Shown: piece after piece, positions 1 through 13,572 of the stretch
How positions within the stretch are numbered: the first letter of the stretch is position 1
Layout of the letters: every line of letters starts with the position of its first letter
Virus record (IMG/VR): IMGVR_UViG_2671181050_000011
Direction: 5' to 3' (one strand)
Source: a virus
Lineage: Duplodnaviria > Heunggongvirae > Uroviricota > Caudoviricetes
DNA length: 13,572 bases
The notes under the pieces: model-generated
Told to the model about the DNA's origin: nothing
Databases searched by the model: none
The model's input: the letters and a program-made list of their open reading frames with translations, nothing else
Position numbers and translations under genes: made by a program

Positions 1-102
1 AGGCGGAATATATGCGTCACCTTCACCAATAAATTCATTAGTTCCGGCCAGCAGATTATAAATTTTTATGGTCCGTGGTTGTTCACTCATTCTGAATGCC
101 AT
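1..102 (-). CDS. tfa: tail fibre assembly protein Tfa, 5' end only (first 34 codons; CDS continues beyond the window start)
   Basis: Reverse-complement translation from ATG at 102..100 gives [34 protein letters not shown], which matches the N-terminus of lambdoid Tfa proteins as I recall them. The ATG overlaps the stop of the upstream tail-fibre ORF (TAATG), the usual stf-tfa coupling. Confidence 0.8.
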
Positions 103-410
103 TACGCAAGCCTCACAATATAGTTAAATGCGATGTTTTTGACGGTGTTTTCCGCGTTACCAGCAGCGTTAACGGTGATGGTATGTCCATGTGAACCAAT
201 CGCAACGGAGTGCGTATGAGCACCAATACCGACAGTATGTGCGTGTGCACCTGCGCTTGCAGCAGTACCCGATACAGAGTGCGTATGAGCGCCTGCAGAA
301 GAAGTGTTAACACTGTATTTAGAATAATCAGGTGATCCACTTCCCGGAGCACCACTGGAACCACCTGAAACAAATGTCATCGAATGGGTATGTGCACCGG
401 CTGTCCCCAT
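102..410 (-). pseudogene. stf: side tail fibre protein (Stf-like), C-terminal ~100 codons only; remnant joined out of frame to truncated J
   Basis: The minus-strand frame ends ...[22 protein letters not shown] and carries five His-x-His motifs (AHTHS x3, AHAHT, SHGHT), typical of the C-terminal domain of T4 gp37 / lambdoid side tail fibres. No tail-fibre N-terminus is present; upstream of about 405 the J-homologous frame takes over. Confidence 0.65.
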
Positions 411-2427
411 GCATTTACCGCCCGGACTGTCAGCCTGTAATTTCCCAGCGCCAGCTGCGTGAAGCGATATGTGGTTTCCGTCGTCCGGGCCGTGCTGACC
501 AACCGCTCACTGCCGTCGTCCGCTGCCACGGTCAGGCGAAGCATAAAGCTCACCCCCTTCACCACCTTCGGCGTGTCCCAGCGCGCCAGCACCTGGTATT
601 CCCCGCTGTCTGCGGTGACTTCTGCGGTCAGGTGCTGAACTGCTGGCGGCGTGACACCATTCACCGTGCCGCTCTGGTCACCGTCAAAGTGCGCCCCGTT
701 ATCCACGATGGCTTCTTTCTCCGGTACATGCTGCACGGCAGCTTCAGCCCCCACACGCTGTACTCGGCAACGCCGTCAGGAACCCGGCTCACTTTCACCT
801 TCACGCCGTCGGTGACGGACTGGACCTCCACGCTCACCGGATTACCCTGCCCGTCAACCAGGCTTATCAGCGTGGTGCCGGAGGATGGCAGCGTGATTTC
901 ACGGTCGAGCGTCAGTGTCCGCGTCTGGCTGTTCACCGCCAGCACGCGCCCGCCGATGCTGATCCCCGCATAGTCATCATCACAGATTTCAATGACATCA
1001 CCTGGTACATGGCGAAGCCCTTCGGCACCCACGCTGAAGTCCACGGTCTGCGTTTCCAGCAGTTCCGTTTTAATCAGCCACAGCCCGGCTCGGTGCGCCT
1101 GCCCCCGCCTGGTACAGCCAAAGGCATCCATCTTCGTGACGTTACGACCGTAACGGGCAATGGCCTGCGTGTCCTCCACAAGCTCTGTCGCCGTCTCCCA
1201 GCCGTTATCCGGGTCAATCCAGTTCACCTCAACGGCATTATGGCGGTCCTTCAGGGCGCTGAAGCTGTAGCGGAACGGCGCGCCATCATCCGGCATCACC
1301 ACATTACTGCGGTTATAGGTCCACACCTTATCTGATGGTCGGTCCTGCACGAACGTCAGCGTCTGCCCGTTCCATACCGGCATACAGCGCATCGCCGAGC
1401 AGAAATCACTGAGAACATCCCACGCCTTACGCTGTGTGGTCAGCCAGGCATTACAGGTGATGCGCGGCTCCGTGCCGCCAAAACCGTCTGGCACCGACTG
1501 GTCGCAACACTGGCCGATGACATACAGCGCCCATTTATCCACATCTGCCGCACCAAGACGTTTACCCATGCCGTAGCGCGGGTGGGTCAGCATATCCCAC
1601 AGACACCAGGCCATGTTGTTGCTGTATGCTGGCTTAAACGTTCCGTCCCAGATACCGCTGTATTGCCGCGTCTGCGGGTTATAGTTCGACGGCACCTGCA
1701 GAATACGCCCGCGAAGATGATAATTACGGCTCACCTGCTGGCTGCCGAACTGCTCCGAATCCACCTGTACGCCGACCAGTGCCGTGTTCGGGTAGCACTG
1801 TTTCACATCGATGATTTCGGTGTATGACGACCAGAGCGTTTTGTTCTGCAGCTGGTCTGTGGTGCTGTCCGGCGTCATCCTGCGCATCCGGATGTTGAAC
1901 GGGCGCGGCGGCAGATTATCCACCACTACCGAGGCCAGATACTGCGAGGTGGTTTTGCCCTTAATGGTGATGTCTTTTTCCGTCACCCAGCCACCGTTAC
2001 GTTGTATCTGAACCAGCAGGCGAACTTCCGACGGATTCCTGTCCCCCTTTGAGGTGGTTTCCACCAGTGCCTGCACACCGAAGGTAAAGCGCAGACGGTC
2101 GATGTTTGCAGACGTAATGGTGCGGGTGATCGGCGTGTCATATTTCACTTCCGTACCCAGCACCGTCTCGGAGCCGGAGGATTCAAACCCCTCCGGCGGT
2201 GTCTGCTCCTGCTCACCGGCACGGAACACCACCGTGACACCGGAGATGTTGGTATTCCCCTCAGTGTCCAGCACCGGCGTACTGTTCAGCAGCACGCTTT
2301 TTAATCCATCCACCGGACCTTCAACCGGCCCTTCGCTGATGGCATCGATCACACTCAGCAACTGCGTGGACTTCAGGTTGTCCTTCGCTTCGCGCGGGGT
2401 ATGCCCCTTACTGCTTCCTTTACCCAT
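377..2427 (-). pseudogene. J: tail tip / host specificity protein J, N-terminal ~690 of ~1130 codons, disrupted by an internal frameshifting deletion and truncated at a junction with stf
   Basis: ORF 2427..661 starts MGKGSSKGHTPREAKDNLKSTQLLSVIDAISEGP..., near-identical to the lambda gpJ N-terminus as recalled. J similarity then continues in a different frame (754..377: AVQHVPEKEAIVDNGAHFDG...RAVNAWGQ) and stops at about 401. ATG at 2427..2425; 60-nt gap after I as in lambda. Confidence 0.88.
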
Positions 2428-2487
2428 TCCTCACGCTCCATAAACGACAAAACCGCCCGGAGGCGGTTTCACATAAAACATTTTGCA

Positions 2488-3135
2488 TCAGCGACCAATC
2501 ACCACAACCTGACCACCGTCCCCTTCGTCTGCCGTGCTGATCTCCTGAGAAGCCACCCGCGACCCCACGCGCATTTCACCGTACAGAACAGGCAGAACAT
2601 TGCCCTGGGCAACCATGTTATCCAGTGAGGAGAAATAGGTGTTCTGCTTACCGTTATCCGTTGTCTGTGTACGGGGAGTTCTGGCTTTCGGTGCCAGCAT
2701 CTGCGCCACACCGCCAAGGATCATACTGGCCCCCGCAGCATACATGCCCGATAAAGCCGCAGCTCCCAGCCAGCCTGCAGGGTTCCACCACGCCACTGCA
2801 ATCAGCGCCGCACCCAGCACCGCCTGAAACACACCGCCACTTTTTGCTCCCGCAAGACGCGGAACGATGTGGATCACGGCACCATTTTTCAGCGGCTCAT
2901 TAAGACGGGCTGATAATTCGTTTTCGCCTGCATCACGCCCGGCAATGCGCACCTGATACCAGCCCTCATTCAGTTTCTGACGAAACGCCGGGAGCTGTGT
3001 GACCAGTGCCCGGATGGCTTCAGCCCCCGTTTTCACACGAAGGTCGATGCGGCGGCCAAATCGTTGCAAATCCCCGTAAAGGCAGATGCGTGCCATGCCC
3101 GGTGACGCCAGAGGGAGTGTGTGCGTCGCTGCCAT
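2488..3135 (-). CDS. I: tail assembly protein I
   Basis: 215-aa ORF MAATHTLPLASPGMARICLYGDLQRFGRRIDLRVKTGAEAIRAL...GDGGQVVVIGR, very similar to lambda gpI as recalled. ATG at 3135..3133. Its 5' end overlaps K by 103 nt, as in lambda. Confidence 0.9.
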   Translation of the reverse strand: MAATHTLPLASPGMARICLYGDLQRFGRRIDLRVKTGAEAIRALVTQLPAFRQKLNEGWYQVRIAGRDAGENELSARLNEPLKNGAVIHIVPRLAGAKSGGVFQAVLGAALIAVAWWNPAGWLGAAALSGMYAAGASMILGGVAQMLAPKARTPRTQTTDNGKQNTYFSSLDNMVAQGNVLPVLYGEMRVGSRVASQEISTADEGDGGQVVVIGR

Positions 3136-3776
3136 TTGTCGGTGTACCTCTCTCGTTTACTCAGTTGTTCAGGAATATGGTGCAGCAGCTCGCCGTCGCC
3201 ACAGTAAATGGCGGCATGATTCGGCACCGATGAACCAAAACAGCACAGCAGCACGTCGCCAGGCTGCGCCTCTGTCAGTGGGACACGGTAAAAACCCGTT
3301 GCCTCCATATTGTCAAGATAGAGATTCTGGCCGTGACGCCACCAGTCATCCCCGCGATGAAAATCCGGCATCTCAATTCCCGCCAGATGGTAAGCGTCCC
3401 GGAACAGCGTGTAACAGTCCGTCACCCCGTGCTCAAAGCGCCACCCGGTGAGATGCGGCACACAGAGGAATTTATGAATCGCCCCCCGGCAGACCAGCCA
3501 CCACGGCAAATCACTCTGCACCTGCAGCCGCCGGTCGGCCTCACTCAGCCAGGGCAGACCACCGGGGTGGCTGTGGACCAGCGCCACAATCTCTCCCTGC
3601 ATTTCTGCACTCAGCCAGTCCTCCGGCGACATCCGGAAATACTCCTCCGGCTCACCGGAGATATTCACGCAGGGAAAATATCTTTCTCCCTCCGGCGTTC
3701 TCACCACGAAGCCGCACGACTCTGCTGGCGCACATCGCCGGGCGTGCGCCAGAATCGCTGATTCTGTCTCTGTCAT
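3033..3776 (-). CDS. K: tail assembly protein K (JAB/MPN-type HSHP motif plus NlpC/P60-like C-terminal region)
   Basis: 247-aa ORF MTETESAILAHARRCAPAESCGFVV...ALVHSHPGG..., lambda gpK-like. ATG at 3776..3774, 5 nt after the L stop; the lambda L-K-I-J spacing is conserved. Confidence 0.9.
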   Translation of the reverse strand: MTETESAILAHARRCAPAESCGFVVRTPEGERYFPCVNISGEPEEYFRMSPEDWLSAEMQGEIVALVHSHPGGLPWLSEADRRLQVQSDLPWWLVCRGAIHKFLCVPHLTGWRFEHGVTDCYTLFRDAYHLAGIEMPDFHRGDDWWRHGQNLYLDNMEATGFYRVPLTEAQPGDVLLCCFGSSVPNHAAIYCGDGELLHHIPEQLSKRERYTDKWQRRTHSLWRHRAWHASAFTGICNDLAAASTFV

Positions 3777-3781
3777 GGGAT

Positions 3782-4480
3782 TTACTGCGAAAGTTTGTTA
3801 ATGGAAAGGAAGCCGCCAAAGTTGCCGACGTTATTGCGAAACTTACAGCCGCTCAGGCATTTGCTGCATTTATCCTTCGTGATATCGGACGTCGGCTGGT
3901 CATATTCATCCGCGACAGCCGGACCGTGATAACCGCACTCATCACCGCGATAGGTCCAGGTGCAGGTATTAGCCAGCATGATGCGCCCCGGAAAAACGGC
4001 ACCATCCGTTTCCGTCGGTGTGGAGAGCACAAAGGAGGCACTGACCGCGCTCAGTTCGCTGCACTGCTCGATGCGCCAGCGGCTGATCACCTCCTGCTCC
4101 GGATCGGCGTCACTGTTTCCGTTGACGAAGTTCACCGCATCCAGAAAACGGGCGTAAACCTTACGCCGGACCACCGTTCCGCCGACCAGACTCTGCAGAT
4201 CTTCCGCCATCCCGGTGACCATACCGTACAGGTTAGAAACCGTCAGCGTGGGGCGCGTACTGGTGCCTTTGCCATTCAGTTCAAAACCACTCCCCTGAAT
4301 GGGATACGGCTGATACTGTCGCCCCTGCCAGGTGACCGGCTCACCTTTTTCGTTCTGCTCATTACAGAAAAAATAACGTTCTCCACCAACCTCTGTCAGG
4401 TCGATTTCCCAGAGCACCACGCTGGCCGACTGCTCCGCACGGGTGCATTCATTCAGTGTTTCCTGCCGGATAACCAACAC
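3782..4480 (-). CDS. L: minor tail protein L (Cys-rich C-terminus), but native ATG start replaced by a deletion junction; frame now opens with GTG-TTG
   Basis: 232-codon ORF ...IRQETLNECTRAEQSASVVLWEIDLTEVGGERYFFCNEQ...GGFLSINKLSQ matches lambda gpL from codon 4 onward. The first codons read GTG TTG GTT where lambda has ATG CAG GAT, and no ribosome-binding site is evident upstream. Confidence 0.8.
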   Translation of the reverse strand: MLVIRQETLNECTRAEQSASVVLWEIDLTEVGGERYFFCNEQNEKGEPVTWQGRQYQPYPIQGSGFELNGKGTSTRPTLTVSNLYGMVTGMAEDLQSLVGGTVVRRKVYARFLDAVNFVNGNSDADPEQEVISRWRIEQCSELSAVSASFVLSTPTETDGAVFPGRIMLANTCTWTYRGDECGYHGPAVADEYDQPTSDITKDKCSKCLSGCKFRNNVGNFGGFLSINKLSQ

Positions 4481-4715
4481 GGGCAGACTTCACCACATTC
4501 ACCTCGCGGATGTAGTCGCTGCCCATCGCATTCATGATGGCCCGCTGAAAGGGCAGTGTTTCCCAGCGCCCTTCCTGGTATGCGGATTCTTTCGGGAGAT
4601 AGTAATTGGCATCCGCCCATTCAACGGCGGTCTGTGGCTCCGGCCTGAACAGTGAGCGAAGCCCGGCGCGGACAAAATGCCGCAGCCTGTTAACCTGACT
4701 GTTCGATATATTCAC
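4449..4715 (-). pseudogene. A: terminase large subunit A, N-terminal ~80 codons only, fused out of frame into the start of L
   Basis: GTG-initiated frame MNISNSQVNRLRHFVRAGLRSLFRPEPQTAVEWADANYYLPKESAYQEGRWETLPFQRAIMNAMGSDYIREVNVVKSARVGY matches the lambda gpA N-terminus as recalled, then diverges (PAGNTE*). It overlaps the Nu1 stop by 26 nt, as in lambda. Confidence 0.85.
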
Positions 4716-5235
4716 TCAGCAACCCCGGTATCAGTTCATCCAGCGCGGCTGCTTTGTTCATGGCTTTGATGATATCCCGTTTCAGGAAATCAACATGTCG
4801 GTTTTCCAGTTCCGGAAAACGCCGCTGCACCGACAGGGGGATCCCGTCGAGAATACTGGCAATTTCACCTGCGATCCGCGACAGCACGAAAGTACAGAAT
4901 GCGGTTTCCACCACTTCAGCGGAGTCTCTGGCATTTTTCAGCTCCTGTGCGTCGGCCTGCGCACGCGTAAGTCGATGGCGTTCGTACTCAATAGTCCCTG
5001 GCTGGAGATCTGTCTCGCTGGCCTGCCGCAGTTCTTCAACTTCCCGGCGCAGCTTTTCGTTCTCAATTTCAGCATCCCTTTCGGCATACCATTTTATGAC
5101 GGCGGCAGAATCATAAAGCACCTCATTACCCTTGCCACCGCCTCGCAGAACGGGCATTCCCTGTTCCTGCCAGTTCTGAATGGTACGGATACTCGCACCG
5201 AAAATGTCAGCCAGCTGCTTTTTGTTGACTTCCAT
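4690..5235 (-). CDS. nohA: terminase small subunit Nu1 (cosB-binding, winged-HTH N-terminus)
   Basis: 181-aa ORF MEVNKKQLADIFGASIRTIQNWQEQGMPVLRGGGKGNEVLYDSAAVIKWYAERD...LSEYIEQSG, essentially lambda Nu1 as recalled. ATG at 5235..5233, at the expected distance from the cos end. Confidence 0.92.
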   Translation of the reverse strand: MEVNKKQLADIFGASIRTIQNWQEQGMPVLRGGGKGNEVLYDSAAVIKWYAERDAEIENEKLRREVEELRQASETDLQPGTIEYERHRLTRAQADAQELKNARDSAEVVETAFCTFVLSRIAGEIASILDGIPLSVQRRFPELENRHVDFLKRDIIKAMNKAAALDELIPGLLSEYIEQSG

Positions 5236-5412
5236 TGTTCATTCCACGGACAAAAACAGAGAAAGGAAACGACAAAGGCCAAAAAGCCCGCTTTCAGCAC
5301 CTGTCGTTTCCTTTCTTTTCAGGGGGTATTTTAAATAAAAACATTAAGTTACGACGAAGAAGAACGGAAACACCTTAAACCGGAAAATTTTCATAAATAG
5401 CGAAAACCCGCG
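5236..5412 (-). promoter_or_regulatory. cosB-equivalent region (terminase/IHF binding sites between cosN and Nu1)
   Basis: The reverse complement is near-identical to the first ~190 nt of the lambda genome as I recall it (GGGCGGCGACCTCGCGGGTTTTCGCTATTTATGAAAATTTTCCGGTTTAAGG...). Individual R and I1 sites were not mapped. Confidence 0.6.
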
Positions 5413-5424
5413 AGGTCGCCGCCC
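5413..5424 (-). other. cosN: 12-nt cohesive-end sequence (minus strand GGGCGGCGACCT)
   Basis: The plus strand reads aggtcgccgccc; the reverse complement is GGGCGGCGACCT. It is flanked on one side by cgtaacctgtcggatcacc (reverse complement of the lambda right end ...GGTGATCCGACAGGTTACG), so both cos halves are contiguous as in an integrated or circularised genome. Confidence 0.85.
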
Positions 5425-5623
5425 CGTAACCTGTCGGATCACCGGAAAGGACCCGTAAAGTGATAATGATTATCATCTACATATCACAACGTGCGTGGAG
5501 GCCATCAAACCACGTCAAATAATCAATTATGACGCAGGTATCGTATTAATTGATCTGCATCAACTTAACGTAAAAACAACTTCAGACAATACAAATCAGC
5601 GACACTGAATACGGGGCAACCTC
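5425..5623 (-). other. lambda right-end non-coding region containing cosQ
   Basis: The reverse complement matches the terminal ~200 nt of lambda as recalled (...GATGATAATCATTATCACTTTACGGGTCCTTTCCGGTGATCCGACAGGTTACG). The exact cosQ element was not delimited. Confidence 0.6.
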
Positions 5624-5857
5624 ATGTCAACGAAGAACAGAACCCGCAGAACAACAACCCGCAACATCCGCTTTCCTAACCAAATGATTGAACAAATTAA
5701 CATCGCTCTTGAGCAAAAAGGGTCCGGGAATTTCTCAGCCTGGGTCATTGAAGCCTGCCGCCGGAGACTGTGCTCAGAAAAAAGAGTTTCTTCTGAAGCA
5801 AACAAAGAAAAGAGTGACATTACTGAATTGCTCAGAAAACAGGTCAGACCAGATTGA
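5624..5857 (+). CDS. ynfO: small basic protein with a possible ribbon-helix-helix-like N-terminal region (YnfO-like)
   Basis: 77-aa ORF MSTKNRTRRTTTRNIRFPNQMIEQINIALEQKGSGNFSAWVIEACRRRL..., ATG at 5624 with a weak GGGG Shine-Dalgarno 7 nt upstream. Position and orientation match K-12 Qin ynfO. The fold assignment is inference. Confidence 0.7.
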   Translation: MSTKNRTRRTTTRNIRFPNQMIEQINIALEQKGSGNFSAWVIEACRRRLCSEKRVSSEANKEKSDITELLRKQVRPD

Positions 5858-5914
5858 AGCAATTTAGATAATCGTGCAGACTACGCCCCCTCATATCACA
5901 TGGAAGGTTTATCT

Positions 5915-6325
5915 ATGGATCAGGTAGTCATTTTTAAACAAATATTTGATAAAGTTCGAAACGATTTAAACTATCAATGGTTTTATTCTGAGCTAAAACG
6001 TCACAATGTCTCACATTACATTTACTATTTAGCCACAGAGAATGTTCATATTGTATTAAAAAATGATAATACAGTGTTATTAAAGGGCCTAAAAAACATT
6101 GTGTCTGTCAAATTTTCAAAGGATAGGCATCTTATAGAAACGACCTCTAATAAGCTGAAATCCAGAGAGATCACATTTCAGGAATACAGAAGAAACCTTG
6201 CTAAAGCAGGAGTTTTTCGGTGGGTTACAAATATCCACGAACAAAAAAGATATTACTATACCTTTGATAATTCATTACTATTTACTGAAAGCATCCAGAA
6301 AACTACACAGATCTTACCACGCTAA
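5915..6325 (+). CDS. ydfO: uncharacterised prophage protein (YdfO-like, DUF1398 family as recalled)
   Basis: ORF 5900..6325; preferred start is the ATG at 5915 ([32 protein letters not shown]...), which has GGAAGG 7 nt upstream and gives 136 aa. AT-rich codon usage, unlike the tail genes. Confidence 0.75.
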
Positions 6326-6333
6326 ACCATAAC

Positions 6334-6362
6334 GTCCGGCTTCTCTCACTCCTGAGCCGGAC
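6334..6362. other. GC-rich inverted repeat (8-bp stem GTCCGGCT / AGCCGGAC, 13-nt loop) just after ydfO
   Basis: Perfect 8-bp inverted repeat seen directly. There is no clear U-tract, so its role (terminator, RNA stability element or protein site) is unresolved. Confidence 0.3.
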
Positions 6363-6476
6363 TGCATTGGTTTAATAAAAACCATCAACAATTGTGATTT
6401 AGATATTCGGAACCATTCAAATATAACAAAACCCCGTAAAAACGAGGTTTATGGATAAATTTTATTATTGAATACA

Positions 6477-6649
6477 TCAGATTAAATTAATCTTGACATC
6501 ATAGCTTTCAAGACCCGTCATTTTTTCCCGTGCGGTAAACTGAATACTGGTAACTTCTTTCCCGGTCTTTTTCTTAAGTTCAATAATTTTTTTGTTATAT
6601 ATTCAGAAATATCTGCTTCTGCTTTTGTTTTTAAGTTTTCAATATTCAT
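6477..6649 (-). pseudogene. gnsB: GnsB-like small protein gene interrupted by a 1-nt frameshift in an A7 homopolymer
   Basis: From ATG 6649 (AAGAGGA just upstream) the frame reads MNIENLKTKAEADISEYITKK, then shifts. The continuation IIELKKKTGKEVTSIQFTAREKMTGLESYDVKINLI* lies in the +1 frame after the A-run at 6587..6593. Both halves resemble GnsA/GnsB (MNIEELKKQAETEIADFIAQKIAELNKNTGKEVSEIRFTAREKMTGLESYDVKIKIM, from memory). Confidence 0.7.
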
Positions 6650-6820
6650 CATTTCCTCTTTTAGTCTGTTATGACTTTCCAGTTACACAGTAAGTCGATT
6701 ATATGGTGCAAACGTGTAAAAGATAAGATGAAACATCGCAATAATCAACATACGATAGTCTAAATTTTACACAAACAGACAAAGAGAATTTTCCTGAATT
6801 ATCAATGCAATAGCATCAAA

Positions 6821-7051
6821 TCAACTCAAGAGCCTTATTGCTGCTTCCAGAATTTCTTCTGAAGTAACATGTCGATCCGCGGCTACATAAATGACTTTAT
6901 GATCTCCGGTCAGAGATGGAAACCCTGCGGCCATTACAGTAAGGTGTGTTTTTTCGCCATTTGGATATTCACGCATGATGGTGTTAACTCCAGTCATCGC
7001 TGGCACTACCACTGCTGGTTCAGAGTTAAAAAAAACTATGATTTTTTTCAT
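6821..7051 (-). CDS. ynfN: small uncharacterised protein (YnfN-like by position)
   Basis: ORF 6821..7093; preferred start is ATG 7051 (MKKIIVFFNSEPAVVVPAMTGVNTIMREYPNGEKTH..., 76 aa). No convincing Shine-Dalgarno, so the start is uncertain. Position matches ynfN in K-12 Qin gene order. Confidence 0.55.
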   Translation of the reverse strand: MKKIIVFFNSEPAVVVPAMTGVNTIMREYPNGEKTHLTVMAAGFPSLTGDHKVIYVAADRHVTSEEILEAAIRLLS

Positions 7052-7095
7052 GATGTTACCGTAGTATGTGAGTATCCATCGAATAGACACCAAGC

Positions 7096-7117
7096 AAAAA
7101 AGCTCCCGAAGGAGCCT
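7096..7117 (-). terminator. candidate intrinsic terminator downstream of cspI (minus-strand orientation)
   Basis: Hairpin GCTCC-cgaa-GGAGC (7102..7115); on the minus strand the stem is followed by TTTTTTGCTT. Confidence 0.45.
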
Positions 7118-7322
7118 TCATTTTCACTTTTTTAAATCCAACGACAGACGGCTGGCATTTAAGTATTGTGAAATATTATCAAATGTAATCATCATTGATT
7201 TACAAAAGATACATTTTGCCCCGAAAGGATTCATGTCAGAAACATCAAAAGATGATGTTCTATACTGGGAACCATGACAACACGGGCATCTAAAGTGAAT
7301 ATGGTTTGTAATATTGTCTACC

Positions 7323-7535
7323 TCAAAGCGCCACTACATGAACAGCGGCAGGACCTTTAGGTCCGTTCTCAATACCAAATTCAACTTCCTGATTCTCAGT
7401 TAATGTTTTGAAATCGTTGCTCTGAATTGCTGAGAAATGGACAAACACATCTTTGCTGCCATCTTTCGGCGTGATGAAACCAAAACCTTTTTCAGGGTTA
7501 AACCATTTCACTAAACCAGTCATTTTGTTAGACAT
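7323..7535 (-). CDS. cspI: cold-shock protein, CspA family (CspI-like)
   Basis: 70-aa [73 protein letters not shown] with RNP1-like (KGFGFI) and RNP2-like (VFVHF) motifs. ATG at 7535 preceded by AAAGGTAATAATT, resembling the cspA translation initiation region. Confidence 0.9.
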
Positions 7536-7898
7536 AATTATTACCTTTTGAAGAAATTAGCCCTTGGGCAGAATGGTCCGAAAAAAAAATATCAGAGAGA
7601 AAAACCAACAAGGAAATCTCAAGAGGTACAAATAATAAAATTATAACAATGACTGCTTCAGATAAATTTGTAACAAACCAGAACACCATTAACGCATGAT
7701 TAACCACCCATAGCAAGGATTACTTTTGTAAAGAAAAACACAGCAATGAAAGAATAGCTTTATTTATTAATAAAACGTGTCATTCTGATTAAGACCTTTT
7801 ATCTTACCCTTAAGATTTCAGGAATTTTGGCTCATGGAAGAGTCCTTTTTATTTAAATTTTACATTCCGCGATGTAAATGTTCCGATTTAATATTACC

Positions 7899-8922
<1,024 letters not shown>

Positions 8923-8926
<4 letters not shown>

Positions 8927-9234
8927 AGATATTTATGATGAGGACGCTCGTGCTTATTGGCAGGATTTTCAATCTTAAAGGAGTACTGATGCTGCAGATA
9001 AGACTCAACTTTTTCTGACAATTTTTCTGCTACTTCCAGGAAGACTTGCCGGACGCTCCTTCTGGCTGCTGCCTCATAAAACTCCAGCGCAGCTCCTTCA
9101 ACACGGTCCATGGCGACATCCAGGTCAAAAATTTCACCGTCAAAGCGTTCTTTGTCCTGTAAGGCTACAGTTACCGTAACTTTATTCTCAAAATTACGGA
9201 CTCCTTTCACAACCAGTTCATAGTCTTGAGTCAT
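8923..9234 (-). CDS. ydfR: uncharacterised protein between holin and endolysin (YdfR-like, DUF1327 as recalled)
   Basis: 103-aa ORF MTQDYELVVKGVRNFENKVTVTVALQDKERFDGEIFDLDVAMDRVEGAALEFYEAAARR.... ATG at 9234, 4 nt after the holin stop; its stop overlaps the endolysin start. Confidence 0.7.
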
Positions 9235-9238
9235 TGGA

Positions 9239-9454
9239 TTACTCTCCTCTCGCAGCCTTACGCCTGTCTTCTTTAATCTTGAAATAAAGATTTGTCAGAT
9301 ACGTCAGCAGGCCAAAAACCAGGCTACCCAGCACACCGATTGCAGCCCACTGTGACGGAGTTACTTTATCGAGTAACTGCAATGCCCAGAAACCAGCATT
9401 ACCCGCCGATGTGCCATAGGCAACACCTGTTGTTAACTTATCCATTGATTTCAT
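9239..9454 (-). CDS. essQ: class II holin / pinholin (phage 21 S-like) with dual-start motif
   Basis: From ATG 9454: [71 protein letters not shown] (71 aa), two transmembrane segments and a charged C-terminus. Met1-Lys-Ser-Met4 gives the holin/antiholin dual start; GAGGA lies just upstream. Confidence 0.85.
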
Positions 9455-9673
9455 ATCCTCACCCCGATGTACACGGATGGTGCAATATGTTTGAAAAGAT
9501 CGGAGTCTACGGGGTAGTTTTGACAGCACACGTTGTTCTCAACGGCGCTAAAAAAACATACACATTAAAAATGTGGGTAATTATTTTGAAAGAAAGTCAT
9601 ATATAAAATAATAATACGAGAAATGTTTTCATATTTAGTGTACTGTATACGGCCATTTATACAGGAAAAGCCT

Positions 9674-9844
9674 ATGTCAGAACGTAAAAACTCAAAATCA
9701 CGCCGTAATTATCTCGTTAAATGTTCCTGCCCAAACTGCACCCAAGAGTCAGAACACAGTTTTTCAAGAGTACAAAAAGGTGCCCTTTTGATCTGCCCTC
9801 ATTGCAACAAAGTATTCCAGACAAATCTTAAAGCTGTAGCCTGA
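9674..9844 (+). CDS. small zinc-ribbon protein (CxxC ... CxxC), possibly the Qin small protein YnfU
   Basis: ATG at 9674 with AGGA 7 nt upstream: MSERKNSKSRRNYLVKCSCPNCTQESEHSFSRVQKGALLICPHCNKVFQTNLKAVA (56 aa). Two Cys pairs are spaced as in a zinc ribbon. The ynfU name is a guess from memory. Confidence 0.55.
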   Translation: MSERKNSKSRRNYLVKCSCPNCTQESEHSFSRVQKGALLICPHCNKVFQTNLKAVA

Positions 9845-9907
9845 TTGATTTTATTAGTAACAAGTATTTTTTATATTTTAATAATATATTTAAAGCAGAT
9901 AATAAAA

Positions 9908-9926
9908 AACCCGCCTGAGCGGGTTT
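9908..9926 (-). terminator. candidate intrinsic terminator (7-bp stem AACCCGC / GCGGGTT, loop CTGA), strongest in minus-strand orientation
   Basis: On the minus strand the stem is followed by TTTTTTATTAT. It lies ~280 nt downstream of the cspB stop and upstream of the lysis cassette. Confidence 0.5.
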
Positions 9927-10207
9927 GAGATTGTGGTGCTTTTTGTGGGAGTCATCCACTTACGCACTTTGTTTTGCCATGCCAGCAGTTAGCTTCTGCT
10001 GTAAAACTATTCATGCAGCAAACCTGCACTTCACCACAATGGTTAGCATACTTTTCCTGATTAAGATTTTGCCAAATATGCTAGCCATTGTTTCATGTAT
10101 TGGACCTCCTTACTTTTTATTAAAGAGATCCAATATTCACTACTCTGTCCGTATCTCTACTCAGGCATCAGCCTTCTTCGTTATCGTATACAGACGAGCG
10201 ATGAATT

Positions 10208-10423
10208 TTAATCAGTAATGATGACATTTGCTGCTGCAGGACCTTTAGCACCACTCTCTATAGAGAAGGTAACCTTTTGACCTTCAAATAAGGTTCGATA
10301 ATTATCATTCTGAATCGCAGAAAAATGCACAAACACATCTTTACTACCATCAACAGGAGAAATAAAGCCGAAACCTTTATCAGCGTTAAACCATTTTACT
10401 AAACCAGTCATTTTATTTGACAT
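10208..10423 (-). CDS. cspB: cold-shock protein, CspA family (CspB-like)
   Basis: 71-aa [77 protein letters not shown] at 10423 with AAGGA 7 nt upstream. Divergent from cspF, as in K-12 Qin. Confidence 0.9.
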
Positions 10424-10723
10424 TCTACATTCCTTAACTTGAGCCTTTCGGCATAAATGGTTTGCATAACAGAAACGACTTCGTACTTAATTGGAGAGAC
10501 TCAAAGAAGGAATAAGTGAATAACACCTGAAATGAGAACTGCTTTAGTAAACTACTTCGTATATCGTCTGTTCTTCAAACCGACGCAATCATTAACGCAT
10601 AGTTGAACATATGAAGCAATGTTTATTTTAGACATCCAGCCATCTTCAACCCCATCAAAAAACTATAGCTTTCTTCAGGAACGTGTGTATAGTGTGCCAA
10701 GTTATCAGTATTAAGGAATTTTT

Positions 10724-10936
10724 TTGTCCCGTAAAATGACAGGAATTGTCAAAACCTTTGACGGCAAAAGCGGCAAGGGTCTTATCACCCCATCCGATGG
10801 TCGTATCGATGTCCAGCTTCATGTTTCAGCGCTCAATCTCCGCGATGCAGAAGAAATTACCACCGGATTACGCGTGGAATTTTGCCGGATAAATGGTCTG
10901 CGTGGCCCTTCAGCTGCCAATGTTTACCTTTCATGA
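10724..10936 (+). CDS. cspF: CspA-family paralogue lacking the aromatic RNP motifs (CspF/CspH-like), apparent TTG start
   Basis: [70 protein letters not shown]. Codon 1 is TTG (10724..10726) with AGGA 6 nt upstream; the first ATG (10736) has no Shine-Dalgarno at proper spacing. Confidence 0.85.
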
Positions 10937-10990
10937 GCTATATTAAAGCTTTAATTTCAGGCCCCATCGGATCACACATGGAGAGTTTTT

Positions 10991-11080
10991 ATGAATAACC
11001 CCGTCTGTCTTGATGACTGGTTGATTGGCTTTAAAAGCTTATGCTGTACTTTGGCCGTAATAGCTCTGCTAATAATATAA
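10991..11080 (+). CDS. candidate 29-aa hydrophobic small protein (unannotated-size ORF)
   Basis: GGAGAG 5 nt upstream of the ATG: [29 protein letters not shown]. The C-terminal half is hydrophobic and could span a membrane. Too short for the supplied ORF track. Confidence 0.3.
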
Positions 11081-11230
11081 TAAGCAGACTCATTGTGTTT
11101 AGGGACATTGTACTGGAAGAAAACATTTTAAACATCAGGCAAATAACCAAGTCACCAGCTAAATAATAAGTTAACAGACATGAGTCCCGGGATGAGATTC
11201 AACATTACCATTGCCCCATTTAAAGCACAA

Positions 11231-11248
11231 AACCCGCTCATCAGCGGG
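11231..11248. terminator. bidirectional-looking intrinsic terminator hairpin (7-bp stem ACCCGCT / AGCGGGT, loop CATC)
   Basis: The plus strand has AAAA before and TTTTCTACTTTTTCTT after the stem; the minus strand has TTTGTGCTTT after it. It sits between the Q stop (11358) and cspF, where a lambdoid tR' would be expected. Confidence 0.5.
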
Positions 11249-11286
11249 TTTTCTACTTTTTCTTAACGTCGGGTATACAAAGCCCA

Positions 11287-11315
11287 TCGTTGAAAAAATT
11301 TTATCCATATTTTTT
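11287..11315 (-). promoter_or_regulatory. candidate sigma-70 late promoter (pR'-like) downstream of Q
   Basis: On the minus strand: TTGCAT (11315..11310), 17-nt spacer, TAAAAT (11292..11287). It is ~45-70 nt downstream of the Q stop and upstream of the 11231..11248 hairpin. No qut/pause site was verified. Confidence 0.35.
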
Positions 11316-11357
11316 GAAAAATGCAAACATCATGTCGCCATCTTCAGCAAAAATCAT

Positions 11358-12110
11358 TTATCTCGTCACCTTCCTCAATTGCGCTTCCGCGTATGCTTCT
11401 TCCTGCCAGCACTTTGTTACCAGTTTACCAATGACGTCCGCATACCCCTTATACCACTGATAATCGGTCAGGTCTGGTACCAGCTTCTGGACATGACGTC
11501 GTGCCAGCGTGGTCGGTAAACGACTAAACCGGTTTCCATTACAACGCCCACAAATCTTATATACCGGTACGCCATGAAACCGGGTTCTTTTTTCATCCAG
11601 AACAATCCCTTTACCCTTACACCCTCTGCACGCTGTGCTGGCTTCGCCCTTACCATGGCAATGCTGACATAGTTCCTTCACCCATTCTTCCTTGATTACA
11701 GATTCCCCGCGTCTGTAGTGTTTCACCACTTCGCGCAATACATTATAAAATCCCGTACCTGAACAATGCTCACAGCGAGCCTTACTTGCCGCAGACCTGG
11801 AGTAATCAGCAAAGGCAAAACTCACGAGGTAAGGAATAATCTGTAACCGGATTTCTTCACTCAATTTGTTCAATGTCGGGTTATCCAGTGCCATCGCGTA
11901 ATTTAGCAGGCCTTCAATCGCAAACTGAGGGTCCTGAACACCAACTTTTGCCAGAAATAAGGCCAACCCAAATGGTGCTTTCGACTGCACCATCCTCTGC
12001 GCTGCCATTACATCCGTAATTGTTAAACAACCGGTGCCTGTCGCTGGAGCGTCATCGCTCAATTTTGGAGATTTTGGGGAGTAATATTTTGGTAAGGCTT
12101 CAAGGTTCAT
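11358..12110 (-). CDS. quuQ: late-gene antiterminator Q (Cys-rich, multiple CxxC zinc-binding motifs)
   Basis: ORF 11358..12140; preferred start ATG 12110 (MNLEALPKYYSPKSPK..., 250 aa) with GGAG 7 nt upstream. Motifs CEHCSGTG, CQHCHGKG, CRGCKGKG and CGRCNGN are present. Position is immediately upstream of the lysis region, as for Q. Confidence 0.88.
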   Translation of the reverse strand: MNLEALPKYYSPKSPKLSDDAPATGTGCLTITDVMAAQRMVQSKAPFGLALFLAKVGVQDPQFAIEGLLNYAMALDNPTLNKLSEEIRLQIIPYLVSFAFADYSRSAASKARCEHCSGTGFYNVLREVVKHYRRGESVIKEEWVKELCQHCHGKGEASTACRGCKGKGIVLDEKRTRFHGVPVYKICGRCNGNRFSRLPTTLARRHVQKLVPDLTDYQWYKGYADVIGKLVTKCWQEEAYAEAQLRKVTR

Positions 12111-12123
12111 GCTCGTTCTCCAC

Positions 12124-13173
12124 TTACGCCAGTACGCCAATTGCCAGCGCGCGATCGATAAAACGAAATATCAGCTCCAGTTGGGAGCCATACTTATCTT
12201 CAAATGCCACTGTATCCGTATGCAGCTCGTTGTGATGCTTTCTGCACAAAGGCAACACAAAGAGATCATGTGCTTTTGTTCCCATTCCGCCCTGCCCGTG
12301 ACCAATCAGATGATGCGGATCGTCGGCTGGCATACCGCAGCAAGCACACGGCTGTGTCTTAACCCAACGTGTGTATTTCTCCTTAACCCAGCGGCGACGT
12401 TTAGGCAGCTTCATGAAAGATTCCGGAGACTCTGGATCAACGGTGATGCTTACCACCGTCTTTTCCTGTGGTGATTTTTGTTGCTGGTGGGCGTAAGGCA
12501 ACGGTGCAAGATTTTTTGTGCGTTGTTTCAATATGCTGGTGGCGGTCTGCTCTCCCGGTACGATGTCGCTTTCGCGGTACACCGAGCAGATTTTTTCCGC
12601 TGGTAATCCCAGCGAACGACGCGATACAGCCTCAGGTAGTGCATCCACCACCTGATTGCAGACCGCCCACCAGGATAATTCAGCCAAAGATAATTCCCGC
12701 TCCTGCGTACCGCTTATTGCGTGACGGATGACGTCAATCACCCATGCTGTCAGATTTTGTTGAGCAAGCAGCTCCAGTGATTCCGATGTCTGGTCACGCA
12801 GTTGGTTGTCGCAGTGCCAGCACAACACCATTGCGCCGGTACCATAACGGTGAATGACTGTTTCAGTGTGATGGTAATCGCCATTAGGCCACTGGCAGGA
12901 TGTAACATGACGTAATAGCCAGTCGGACAATGCGCCAACGCCGCCAGCAGCACGAATCACCCGTTCGTTACTAAAAAACGGCAGCAATGTTTTGTCTTCC
13001 GCCAGCGGCTGGCGAACGGCAGGAACGACTCCGGATGGCAGATTACGCATGCTTTTTGGTTCCGGTTCCACCAGCACTCGAGGATTATGAAATATCTGTA
13101 TGGATTCACGGCCCGGCTTAAGGACCACCAGCCCAAGCTCAGGCACCAGAACAGGTCTAAGTAATACCCGCAC
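12124..13173 (-). CDS. ydfU: YdfU-like protein (DUF968 as recalled) with C-terminal HNH-like Cys/His motif
   Basis: ORF 12124..13212; preferred start is GTG 13173 (349 aa), which has GGAGG upstream and abuts the rem stop. C-terminal motif CACCGMPADDPHHLIGHGQGG...LCRKHHNELH. Confidence 0.8.
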   Translation of the reverse strand: MRVLLRPVLVPELGLVVLKPGRESIQIFHNPRVLVEPEPKSMRNLPSGVVPAVRQPLAEDKTLLPFFSNERVIRAAGGVGALSDWLLRHVTSCQWPNGDYHHTETVIHRYGTGAMVLCWHCDNQLRDQTSESLELLAQQNLTAWVIDVIRHAISGTQERELSLAELSWWAVCNQVVDALPEAVSRRSLGLPAEKICSVYRESDIVPGEQTATSILKQRTKNLAPLPYAHQQQKSPQEKTVVSITVDPESPESFMKLPKRRRWVKEKYTRWVKTQPCACCGMPADDPHHLIGHGQGGMGTKAHDLFVLPLCRKHHNELHTDTVAFEDKYGSQLELIFRFIDRALAIGVLA

Positions 13174-13174
13174 G

Positions 13175-13453
13175 TTACCTCCAGATCCGTTGCTGGAAAG
13201 TGCGGGACGCACGTGGTGGGCGTTCGGAATAAGGCAGCCTGACAGAGATTATCCAGTGCCGATAGTCGAGACTGAGAGCTTTCTTAACCTCGAACCCGCG
13301 CCTGCGGTAAGAATGAATCAGCCATTCGGCCTGTTCTGCAGTGCATGGAGGGTGCTGGAACCATTCAGACTTGAATGCGTGAGAATACCGCCCGTGCGTG
13401 CAGGCAAGAACGGGCGAATTATCAGAATTGTAATATTTTGCGTTGCGTGCCAT
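13175..13453 (-). CDS. rem: small uncharacterised prophage protein (Rem-like by position)
   Basis: ORF MARNAKYYNSDNSPVLACTHGRYSHAFKSEWFQHPPCTAEQAEWLIHSYRRRGFEVKK..., ATG at 13453 with GGAG 8 nt upstream. Location 5' of ydfU matches K-12 Qin order. Confidence 0.75.
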   Translation of the reverse strand: MARNAKYYNSDNSPVLACTHGRYSHAFKSEWFQHPPCTAEQAEWLIHSYRRRGFEVKKALSLDYRHWIISVRLPYSERPPRASRTFQQRIWR

Positions 13454-13572
13454 CGGTTTTCTCCGGTGGCACGGTGTTACTCAGCGGGAGTTCAGCCCAT
13501 AAGCGCTAACTTAAGGGTTGAACCATCTGAAGAATGCGACGCCTCGGTGCCTCGTTAAGACGATGCCTCGCG

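Follow-up and report, generated by a model that had tools for sequence, protein, structure and literature searches.

An inherited decay scar joins remnants of the tail genes J and stf in an Escherichia coli prophage

Exchange of side tail fibre tips among phages is well established. In the Qin prophage of E. coli K-12, the annotation of which (stfQ-tfaQ-pinQ end; b1545-b1548) was used here as the comparison reference, a truncated stf is followed by an overlapping tfaQ; a deletion scar there leaves a 320-aa StfQ remnant abutting nohA, and J, I, K and L are all lost. Infecting lambda recombines with the stf-tfa region of K-12 Qin at a frequency of ~2e-6 (PMC3945230). The lambda Stf/T4 gp37 tip (PDB 2XGF) is an iron-binding needle with HxH motifs; in T4 gp37, seven irons lie along the needle; the histidines that bind them are reported to be critical for folding and function (PMC6957217).

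The stretch of DNA analysed here (13,572 nucleotides, IMG/VR record IMGVR_UViG_2671181050_000011; hereafter ‘the window’) matches, over positions 1-13498, a locus of E. coli 1332KP at 99.9% identity, and an IS end lies at ~13497. In 1332KP the matching region is flanked by the ydfJ remnant, ydfK and pinQ on one side and by rem, hokD and relBE on the other. Its gene order is as follows:

First part: tfaQ, partial tail fibre, partial TipJ, I, K, L, partial terminase
Second part: nohA, ynfO, ydfO, gnsB, cspI, rzpQ, rrrQ, essD, cspB, cspF, ydfT, ydfU

The second part has the same order in K-12 Qin, a truncated stf followed by an overlapping tfaQ is common to both, and the chromosomal locus, judged via the relatives 1332KP and ML35, is also the same. 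The Qin gene set and order, together with insertion at ydfJ, were thus found by way of 1332KP; the attachment flank itself lies beyond the window. By its sequence, the window is assigned to a Qin-type cryptic lambdoid prophage of E. coli. Its scar nevertheless differs from that of K-12 Qin, because I, K, L and 700 codons of J are retained, while only 99 codons of stf are left, directly abutting J codon 700. The K-12 scar and the scar described here are independent deletion endpoints within one prophage lineage.

On the J side of the junction, the window contains these features of the tail-tip protein gene:

Positions 736-2427, minus strand: J segment 1, codons 1 to ~564, with the FNIII-A and Phage-tail_3 domains
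Positions 736-741, minus strand: scar of a private 73-bp deletion in J, where a 6-bp direct repeat (coding-strand CTGCCG) survives as one copy; frameshift
Positions 400-741, minus strand: J segment 2, ~codons 589-700 of intact J, with the Ig_J domain
Positions 400-403, minus strand: deletion junction, a 4-base microhomology, CAGC, found in both parents
Positions 377-399, minus strand: stf bases as read in the J frame, completing the first junk codon and supplying the other six (PVHIPIR, 400-380), after which comes TGA

Pfam searches identified the N-terminal domains of J in window 661-2427 (FNIII-A_GpJ, PF24801, E = 4e-42; Phage-tail_3, PF13550, E = 2e-42); past the 73-bp deletion, segment 1 continues for 24 junk codons to a stop at 661. 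Segment 2 matches Ig_J (PF24421, E = 3.9e-36), where the match breaks off at position 90 of the 104-position profile; its DNA is 99.4% identical to gpJ of strain GN04530 and 97.9% identical to J of phage mEp460. Intact gpJ, as found in strain 14EC017, comprises FNIII-A, Phage-tail_3, Ig_J, Ig_J_second, Phage_Tail_Tip and the C-terminal receptor-binding domain PF12421. The last three were absent from the window in the Pfam search and Ig_J is incomplete. The 700 N-terminal codons are close in DNA to a lambda-type J (TipJ), with 97.9% identity to J of mEp460 and 99.4% to an intact E. coli prophage gpJ, yet everything beyond position 90 of the 104 in Ig_J is missing, the receptor-binding domain included, and the gene is in addition frameshifted by the 73-bp deletion. 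No single uninterrupted J frame was found: the frameshift at 736-741 leads to the stop at 661 and the second piece ends at 377. The J of the window is a pseudogene fragment and not a J gene.

The initial annotation had recognized that J similarity ends at ...RAVNAWGQ and is followed by seven junk codons and a stop at 377. This reading proved accurate: on the minus strand the Q codon occupies 403-401, followed by PVHIPIR and by TGA at 379-377. Its proposal that J is truncated at about codon 690 stands as regards the truncation itself and is corrected as regards the codon, the last J codon kept being 700 in the three alleles checked (encoding 1,132, 1,137 and 1,159 aa).

To resolve the junction base by base, the window was aligned in three-way comparisons with five J alleles (mEp460, Evi, 14EC017, 789 and GN04530) and, on the stf side, three alleles (14EC017, G4/9 and GN04530). 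Identity to J continues to 400 and identity to stf begins at 403; the parents are unrelated on either side and there are zero inserted bases. If one mismatch is permitted, the microhomology reaches 397 as CAGC[A/C]GG. Hits to Evi, Kati and Turner seemed to reach 397, suggesting an allele with a longer microhomology; this was rejected, as all five inspected J alleles, that of Evi included, read CAGCAGG. The junction therefore has the form of a microhomology deletion, with few shared bases, one copy kept, no filler and no extended homology. A microhomology of at least 4 bp has a probability of 0.016 at a random join; four bases are short, and would be met by chance at 1-2% of random joins.

The reading frames on the two sides do not agree. 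Taking the first-base position modulo 3, J part 1 is in frame 0, J part 2 in frame 1, stf in frame 2 and tfa in frame 0; an stf frame continuous with J across the junction, which would have contradicted the initial annotation, is therefore not what is found. A programmed frameshift from J into stf was also considered and rejected, no slippery heptamer of the form X XXY YYZ being seen by eye in 410-377.

These observations bear directly on whether the arrangement could instead be the product of modular exchange, in which homologous or PinQ invertase recombination swapped the tail-fibre tip to give a functional chimeric fibre. Tip exchange is common enough, a pin invertase gene adjoins tfaQ in relatives of this prophage, and lambda does recombine with the Qin stf-tfa region at the frequency cited above. 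Nevertheless, the partners here, J and stf, are non-homologous and share four bases; the join is out of frame and is closed by a stop after seven codons; and J has lost its receptor-binding domain and Stf 90% of its length. A recombinase target was sought by a pattern search for the gix/pix-like core alone (AAACCNNGGTTT, with at most two mismatches): none was found near 400, and the five matches in the window, against 7.7 expected by chance, all lie at or past 4720. We consider modular exchange extremely improbable. Because four bases are shared, without filler and with mismatched frames, the junction is attributed to illegitimate deletion rather than to homologous module exchange, in agreement with the initial annotation.

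The stf side of the junction comprises the following:

Positions 102-403, minus strand: 3' remnant of stf, the last 99 codons plus stop, with five HxH motifs; its upper edge lies inside the 400-403 microhomology
Positions 102-410, minus strand: mechanical ORF of 102 aa, whose first three codons, starting with ATG 410-408, come from out-of-frame J DNA
Positions 1-102, minus strand: 5' end of the tail fibre assembly gene tfaQ, the first 34 codons; the rest of the gene lies beyond the left window edge

Only from its fourth codon is the ORF at 102-410 derived from Stf, the stf sequence beginning at 403-399; its ATG stands in J-derived DNA, in the context GC ATG GGG ACA GC. HxH motifs lie at residues 7, 42, 56, 65 and 74 of the 102 aa. 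Had the product of 102-410 been unlike tail-fibre C-termini, the assignment made initially would have failed; in fact it aligns with the very end of the phrog_295 tail-fibre profile (positions 695-794 of 794, E = 3e-40), and for intact Stf the last 215 residues can be aligned with the crystal structure of the T4 gp37 tip, 2XGF (E = 2.8e-89). The similarity of this product to phrog_295 and that of the J piece to Ig_J are well outside what chance would give. The remnant thus resembles the lambda Stf/T4 gp37 tip in being the exact C-terminus of the family, in its HxH motifs and in having a tfa chaperone gene downstream. The match is nevertheless partial, with five HxH motifs as against seven in intact Stf. 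The N-terminal domain PF08400 and the shaft, present in intact Stf of 14EC017, are not in the window ORF, their bases being deleted, and the collar domain PF07484 (residues 826-873 of intact Stf) is likewise lost from the remnant (Pfam). Hence, of the view that a third frame starting at 410 encodes a tail-fibre C-terminal domain with five HxH motifs, the similarity holds, whereas the start codon turns out to be J-derived and the tip domain incomplete.

The TAA of stf (104-102) overlaps the ATG of tfa (102-100) as TAATG, at 104-100, the overlap that had been reported between the tail-fibre frame and tfa, and tfaQ is annotated at the corresponding position in 1332KP, ML35 and 14EC017. In the PGAP annotation the partial tail fibre pseudogene spans just 102-308, and RefSeq/PGAP tags both junction pieces as partial pseudogenes (‘incomplete; partial in the middle of a contig’). 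The ORF at 102-410 is probably not a gene.

In the phage collection, lambdoid phages match the window only from 1 to ~300, and window 240-400 is matched, at 87.6%, only by the T4-like phages AV116 and AV118. By these matches, the tip segment itself is a mosaic.

The extent of the loss was read from intact relatives. At the same chromosomal locus, strain 14EC017 carries the intact arrangement tfaQ-stf (1,035 aa)-Lom/Ail-gpJ (1,159 aa)-I-K-L-M-H (tape measure), and an intact J-lom-stf order is also present in strain 789, at the Qin locus, and in GN04530, at another locus; colinear intact alleles were thus found in all three strains. Window 1-403 is 100% identical to stf/tfaQ of 14EC017 (L004 11762-12164) and 99.75% identical to that of GN04530, while window 397-741 is 92.5% identical to J of 14EC017 and 99.4% identical to J of GN04530. 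The offset between the two alignments gives the deletion size, which is 4,921 bp against 14EC017 and 4,754 bp against GN04530; the latter figure is made up of 1,298 nt of J, a 600-nt lom, 2,722 nt of stf and spacers. Strain 789, for which extrapolation gave a loss of ~5.2 kb, was dropped as a sizing reference, since its stf diverges in window 306-396 and the stf breakpoint is unreadable there; 14EC017 and GN04530 were used in its place. The phage collection was also dropped for sizing on the stf side, its lambdoid members matching only to ~300.

GN04530 is the best proxy on both sides at once (99.4-99.8%) but stands at another locus, and the comparisons yielded no intact prophage that equals the ancestor on both flanks; the deletion size is therefore given as a range, 4,754-4,921 bp, by the comparison with intact lambdoid prophages that the initial annotation had proposed. 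Since intact Stf is ~1,007-1,035 aa long and its last 99 residues are kept, about 90% of stf has been lost. In the intact relatives the missing interval holds the C-terminal part of J, the Lom/Ail gene, and the N-terminus and shaft of stf. This bears out the prediction that the interval would contain the J receptor-binding C-terminus, a lom-like gene, and the tail-fibre N-terminus and shaft.

We therefore regard it as very probable that the arrangement arose by a single illegitimate, microhomology-mediated deletion in a Qin-type prophage, followed by vertical inheritance. The ancestor would have had a late tail region in the order J-lom-stf-tfaQ, in a prophage that was presumably no longer selected for tail function when the deletion occurred. 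A break-and-join reaction of the end-joining type, or replication slippage (slipped-strand), may have acted between two CAGC copies, one at J codon 700/701 and the other 99 codons before the end of stf, and would have removed ~4.75-4.9 kb. From J, ~1.3 kb has gone, with the second Ig domain, the tail-tip domain and the receptor-binding domain; lom has been lost altogether; and stf is shorter by ~2.7-2.8 kb, which held its N-terminal domain, the shaft, the collar domain and two of the seven HxH motifs. The out-of-frame join leaves J ending after seven foreign codons and the stf remnant without a start codon of its own. The scar would then have been inherited vertically and eroded further in each lineage, here by the 73-bp deletion in J. 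Both pieces are pseudogene fragments without tail function. Of this account, the two parental sequences, the breakpoints and microhomology, the frames, the domain content and the distribution are shown; that there was one event, and that nothing is expressed, are inferred.

Two other deletions in the window have the same character. Aligned to 1332KP, the window falls into two blocks, 1-741 and 736-13498, offset from each other by 73 bases, and 1332KP has CGGCAG in two copies; the extra 73 bases are present in 38/38 long matches among complete genomes. A second deletion, from the terminase large subunit into gene L, has a 6-bp overlap at 4470-4475. An overlap of 6 bp is thus found at each, for which P(>=6) = 0.0013, and three microhomology-flanked deletion scars lie within the 13.6-kb window. 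The J-stf junction shares with the microhomology-mediated deletions of decaying prophages a short direct repeat, one copy kept, no filler, non-homologous partners and a broken frame; we find no respect in which it differs from them, and it is a textbook case.

The distribution of the junction was assessed with a 121-base probe (window 340-460). The exact junction (100% identity, at least 80% coverage) was found in 91 of 5,426 complete E. coli genomes; window 1-1200 is preserved to 80% or more in just 38 of them. E. coli genomes hold several copies of prophage tail genes, a median of three places per genome matching window 1-1200, and such repeats can confuse assemblers; a chimeric join of two repeats, arising in assembly or sequencing, could in principle have produced the junction. 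With 91 complete genomes, each sequenced independently, showing the identical join at one and the same chromosomal locus, an artefact is scarcely credible, and since all of these genomes share it, the junction is an inherited scar.

Some junction-bearing genomes have further, nested deletions. ML35 has the same junction, then 303 bp of J only, abutting nohA; the J-stf scar is therefore older than the later lineage-specific deletions. In G4/9 the end state is a 3.2-kb stf remnant fused to a packaging gene. Across E. coli strains, the Qin prophage is seen in graded states of decay.

Given so many decay states among strains, and repeated independent deletions in the same prophage, the loss might have occurred in several steps, for example first inside stf and then through J and lom, with the present junction being merely the last. 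We consider this unlikely. Both flanks are colinear with one intact arrangement and no filler or orphan fragment lies between them; the 121-bp junction is identical in 91/91 junction-bearing genomes; and no intermediate allele was met in the comparisons made, which were no systematic screen for one. Together these points argue for one event rather than several. A multi-step loss would in any case leave the nature of the feature unchanged.

A further question is whether the stub is expressed, or otherwise of use. No Shine-Dalgarno-like sequence was found 5' of ATG 410 or ATG 380, and neither a minus-strand promoter-like site nor a terminator-like site was found in 1-2600; judged from these bases, the remnants are probably not expressed. 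The remnant could nevertheless have been kept through use, either as a translated Stf tip of 92-102 aa or as a selected recombination cassette. Translation would proceed by termination-reinitiation at ATGA 380-377, where the J-frame TGA (379-377) overlaps the stf-frame ATG (380-378), and the product would fold with TfaQ; as a cassette, the stf-tfaQ stub would serve incoming lambdoid phages. Besides the overlapping ATG, the intact state of tfaQ in relatives and the demonstrated use of K-12 Qin stf-tfa as a recombination substrate by lambda (PMC3945230) are consistent with such a role. It is nevertheless very unlikely, given that Shine-Dalgarno-like and promoter-like sequences were not found. 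The fragment also has no collar and has lost two of seven iron-binding HxH motifs, so that folding of the stub is improbable, the iron sites being reported as critical for folding (PMC6957217); and its retention is equally explained if deletions have yet to reach it.

Translational coupling is impossible in this window: owing to the 73-bp frameshift, J translation already ends at 661, 280 nt short of the overlap. In relatives without that frameshift, reinitiation at ATG 380-378 could yield a 92-aa Stf tip which, with the intact TfaQ chaperone, might form a small trimeric HxH needle of benefit to the host, the stub being kept by selection. We give this version even less credence; were it true, the needle might act, for example, as a receptor decoy or in superinfection interference.

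In conclusion, the feature is already known in kind: it is an ordinary decay scar, of the sort left by a textbook prophage deletion. It offers a clean, base-resolved case of cryptic prophage erosion and matters little alone, but the junction, carried by 91/5,426 genomes, might be used to mark a lineage or in teaching. Annotators should not name the ORF at 102-410 as a gene, since J, read in the wrong frame, lends it its start codon. The surviving stf-tfaQ stub could still donate sequence by recombination to incoming lambdoid phages, as is known for K-12 Qin (PMC3945230).

A deletion of 73 bp lies inside J, the lambda-type tail-tip gene, with its scar at window 736-741. On each side it is bounded by a copy of the 6-bp direct repeat CTGCCG (coding-strand sequence), and it shifts the J reading frame ~112 codons ahead of the stf junction, the deletion scar at window 400-403 that joins the J fragment out of frame to the remnant of the side tail fibre gene, stf. 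The J open reading frames around the 73-bp scar, both on the minus strand, are as follows.

661-2427, minus strand: J open reading frame
377-754, minus strand: J open reading frame

This small deletion appears to be private to the window's genome, because the 73 bases are kept in all 38 of the complete Escherichia coli genomes (of 5,426 compared) that retain at least 80% of window 1-1200. At window 377-380, the TGA that closes the truncated J frame overlaps an ATG in the stf frame. An ATGA stop/start overlap is a classic arrangement for translational coupling; here it has almost certainly arisen by accident, since intact Stf has its natural methionine at this codon, in ...HTHSMTF....

The stf tip segment itself, window 240-400, is found at an identity of at least 95% in ~650 E. 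coli genomes and at 99% or more in 485 records. Among sequenced phages, it is matched only by AV116 and AV118, both T4-like, at 87.6%; the match to the tip region in lambdoid phages reaches only ~300 in window coordinates. This distribution illustrates how temperate and virulent phages exchange tail-fibre tips as mosaic segments.

In a second large deletion, all of the head genes and the tail genes up to M were lost, which brought the start of tail gene L up against the ~80 N-terminal codons of the terminase large subunit. Alignment to strain 789 revealed a 6-base overlap between its flanks, at window 4470-4475.

3782-4480: gene L
4470-4480: terminase-L junction, between gene L and the terminase-large stub
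~4476-4727: terminase-large stub, adjoining nohA
4690-5235: nohA
~13497-13572: IS end, at the right end of the window

Similarity to Qin ends at window 13498, and the final ~76 bases correspond to one terminus of an IS4-family element, so an IS has inserted upstream of rem in the window's genome; it is absent from this position in 1332KP, 789 and G4/9. In 14EC017, the same IS end is matched at 5974-6049 of the Qin locus (L004), adjoining an IS421 transposase gene, and a 25-nt inverted-repeat match lies at L004 4710-4734. The left end of the window falls inside tfaQ. To the left of the stretch covered by the window, 1332KP, its closest relative, carries IS1414 between a frameshifted pinQ and tfaQ (L002 4191-5399).

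The state of Qin differs among the strains compared.

14EC017 (L004): full tail module
789 (L001): without head genes
1332KP (L002) and the window: J-stf deletion and terminase-L deletion
ML35 (L008): J-stf junction and nohA-J deletion
G4/9 (L003): nohA fused to a 3.2-kb stf remnant
K-12 (L007): nohA fused to a 0.96-kb stf remnant

Comparison of these loci indicates that 789, 1332KP, G4/9, 14EC017, K-12 and ML35 carry one prophage at one chromosomal site, in a graded series of decay.
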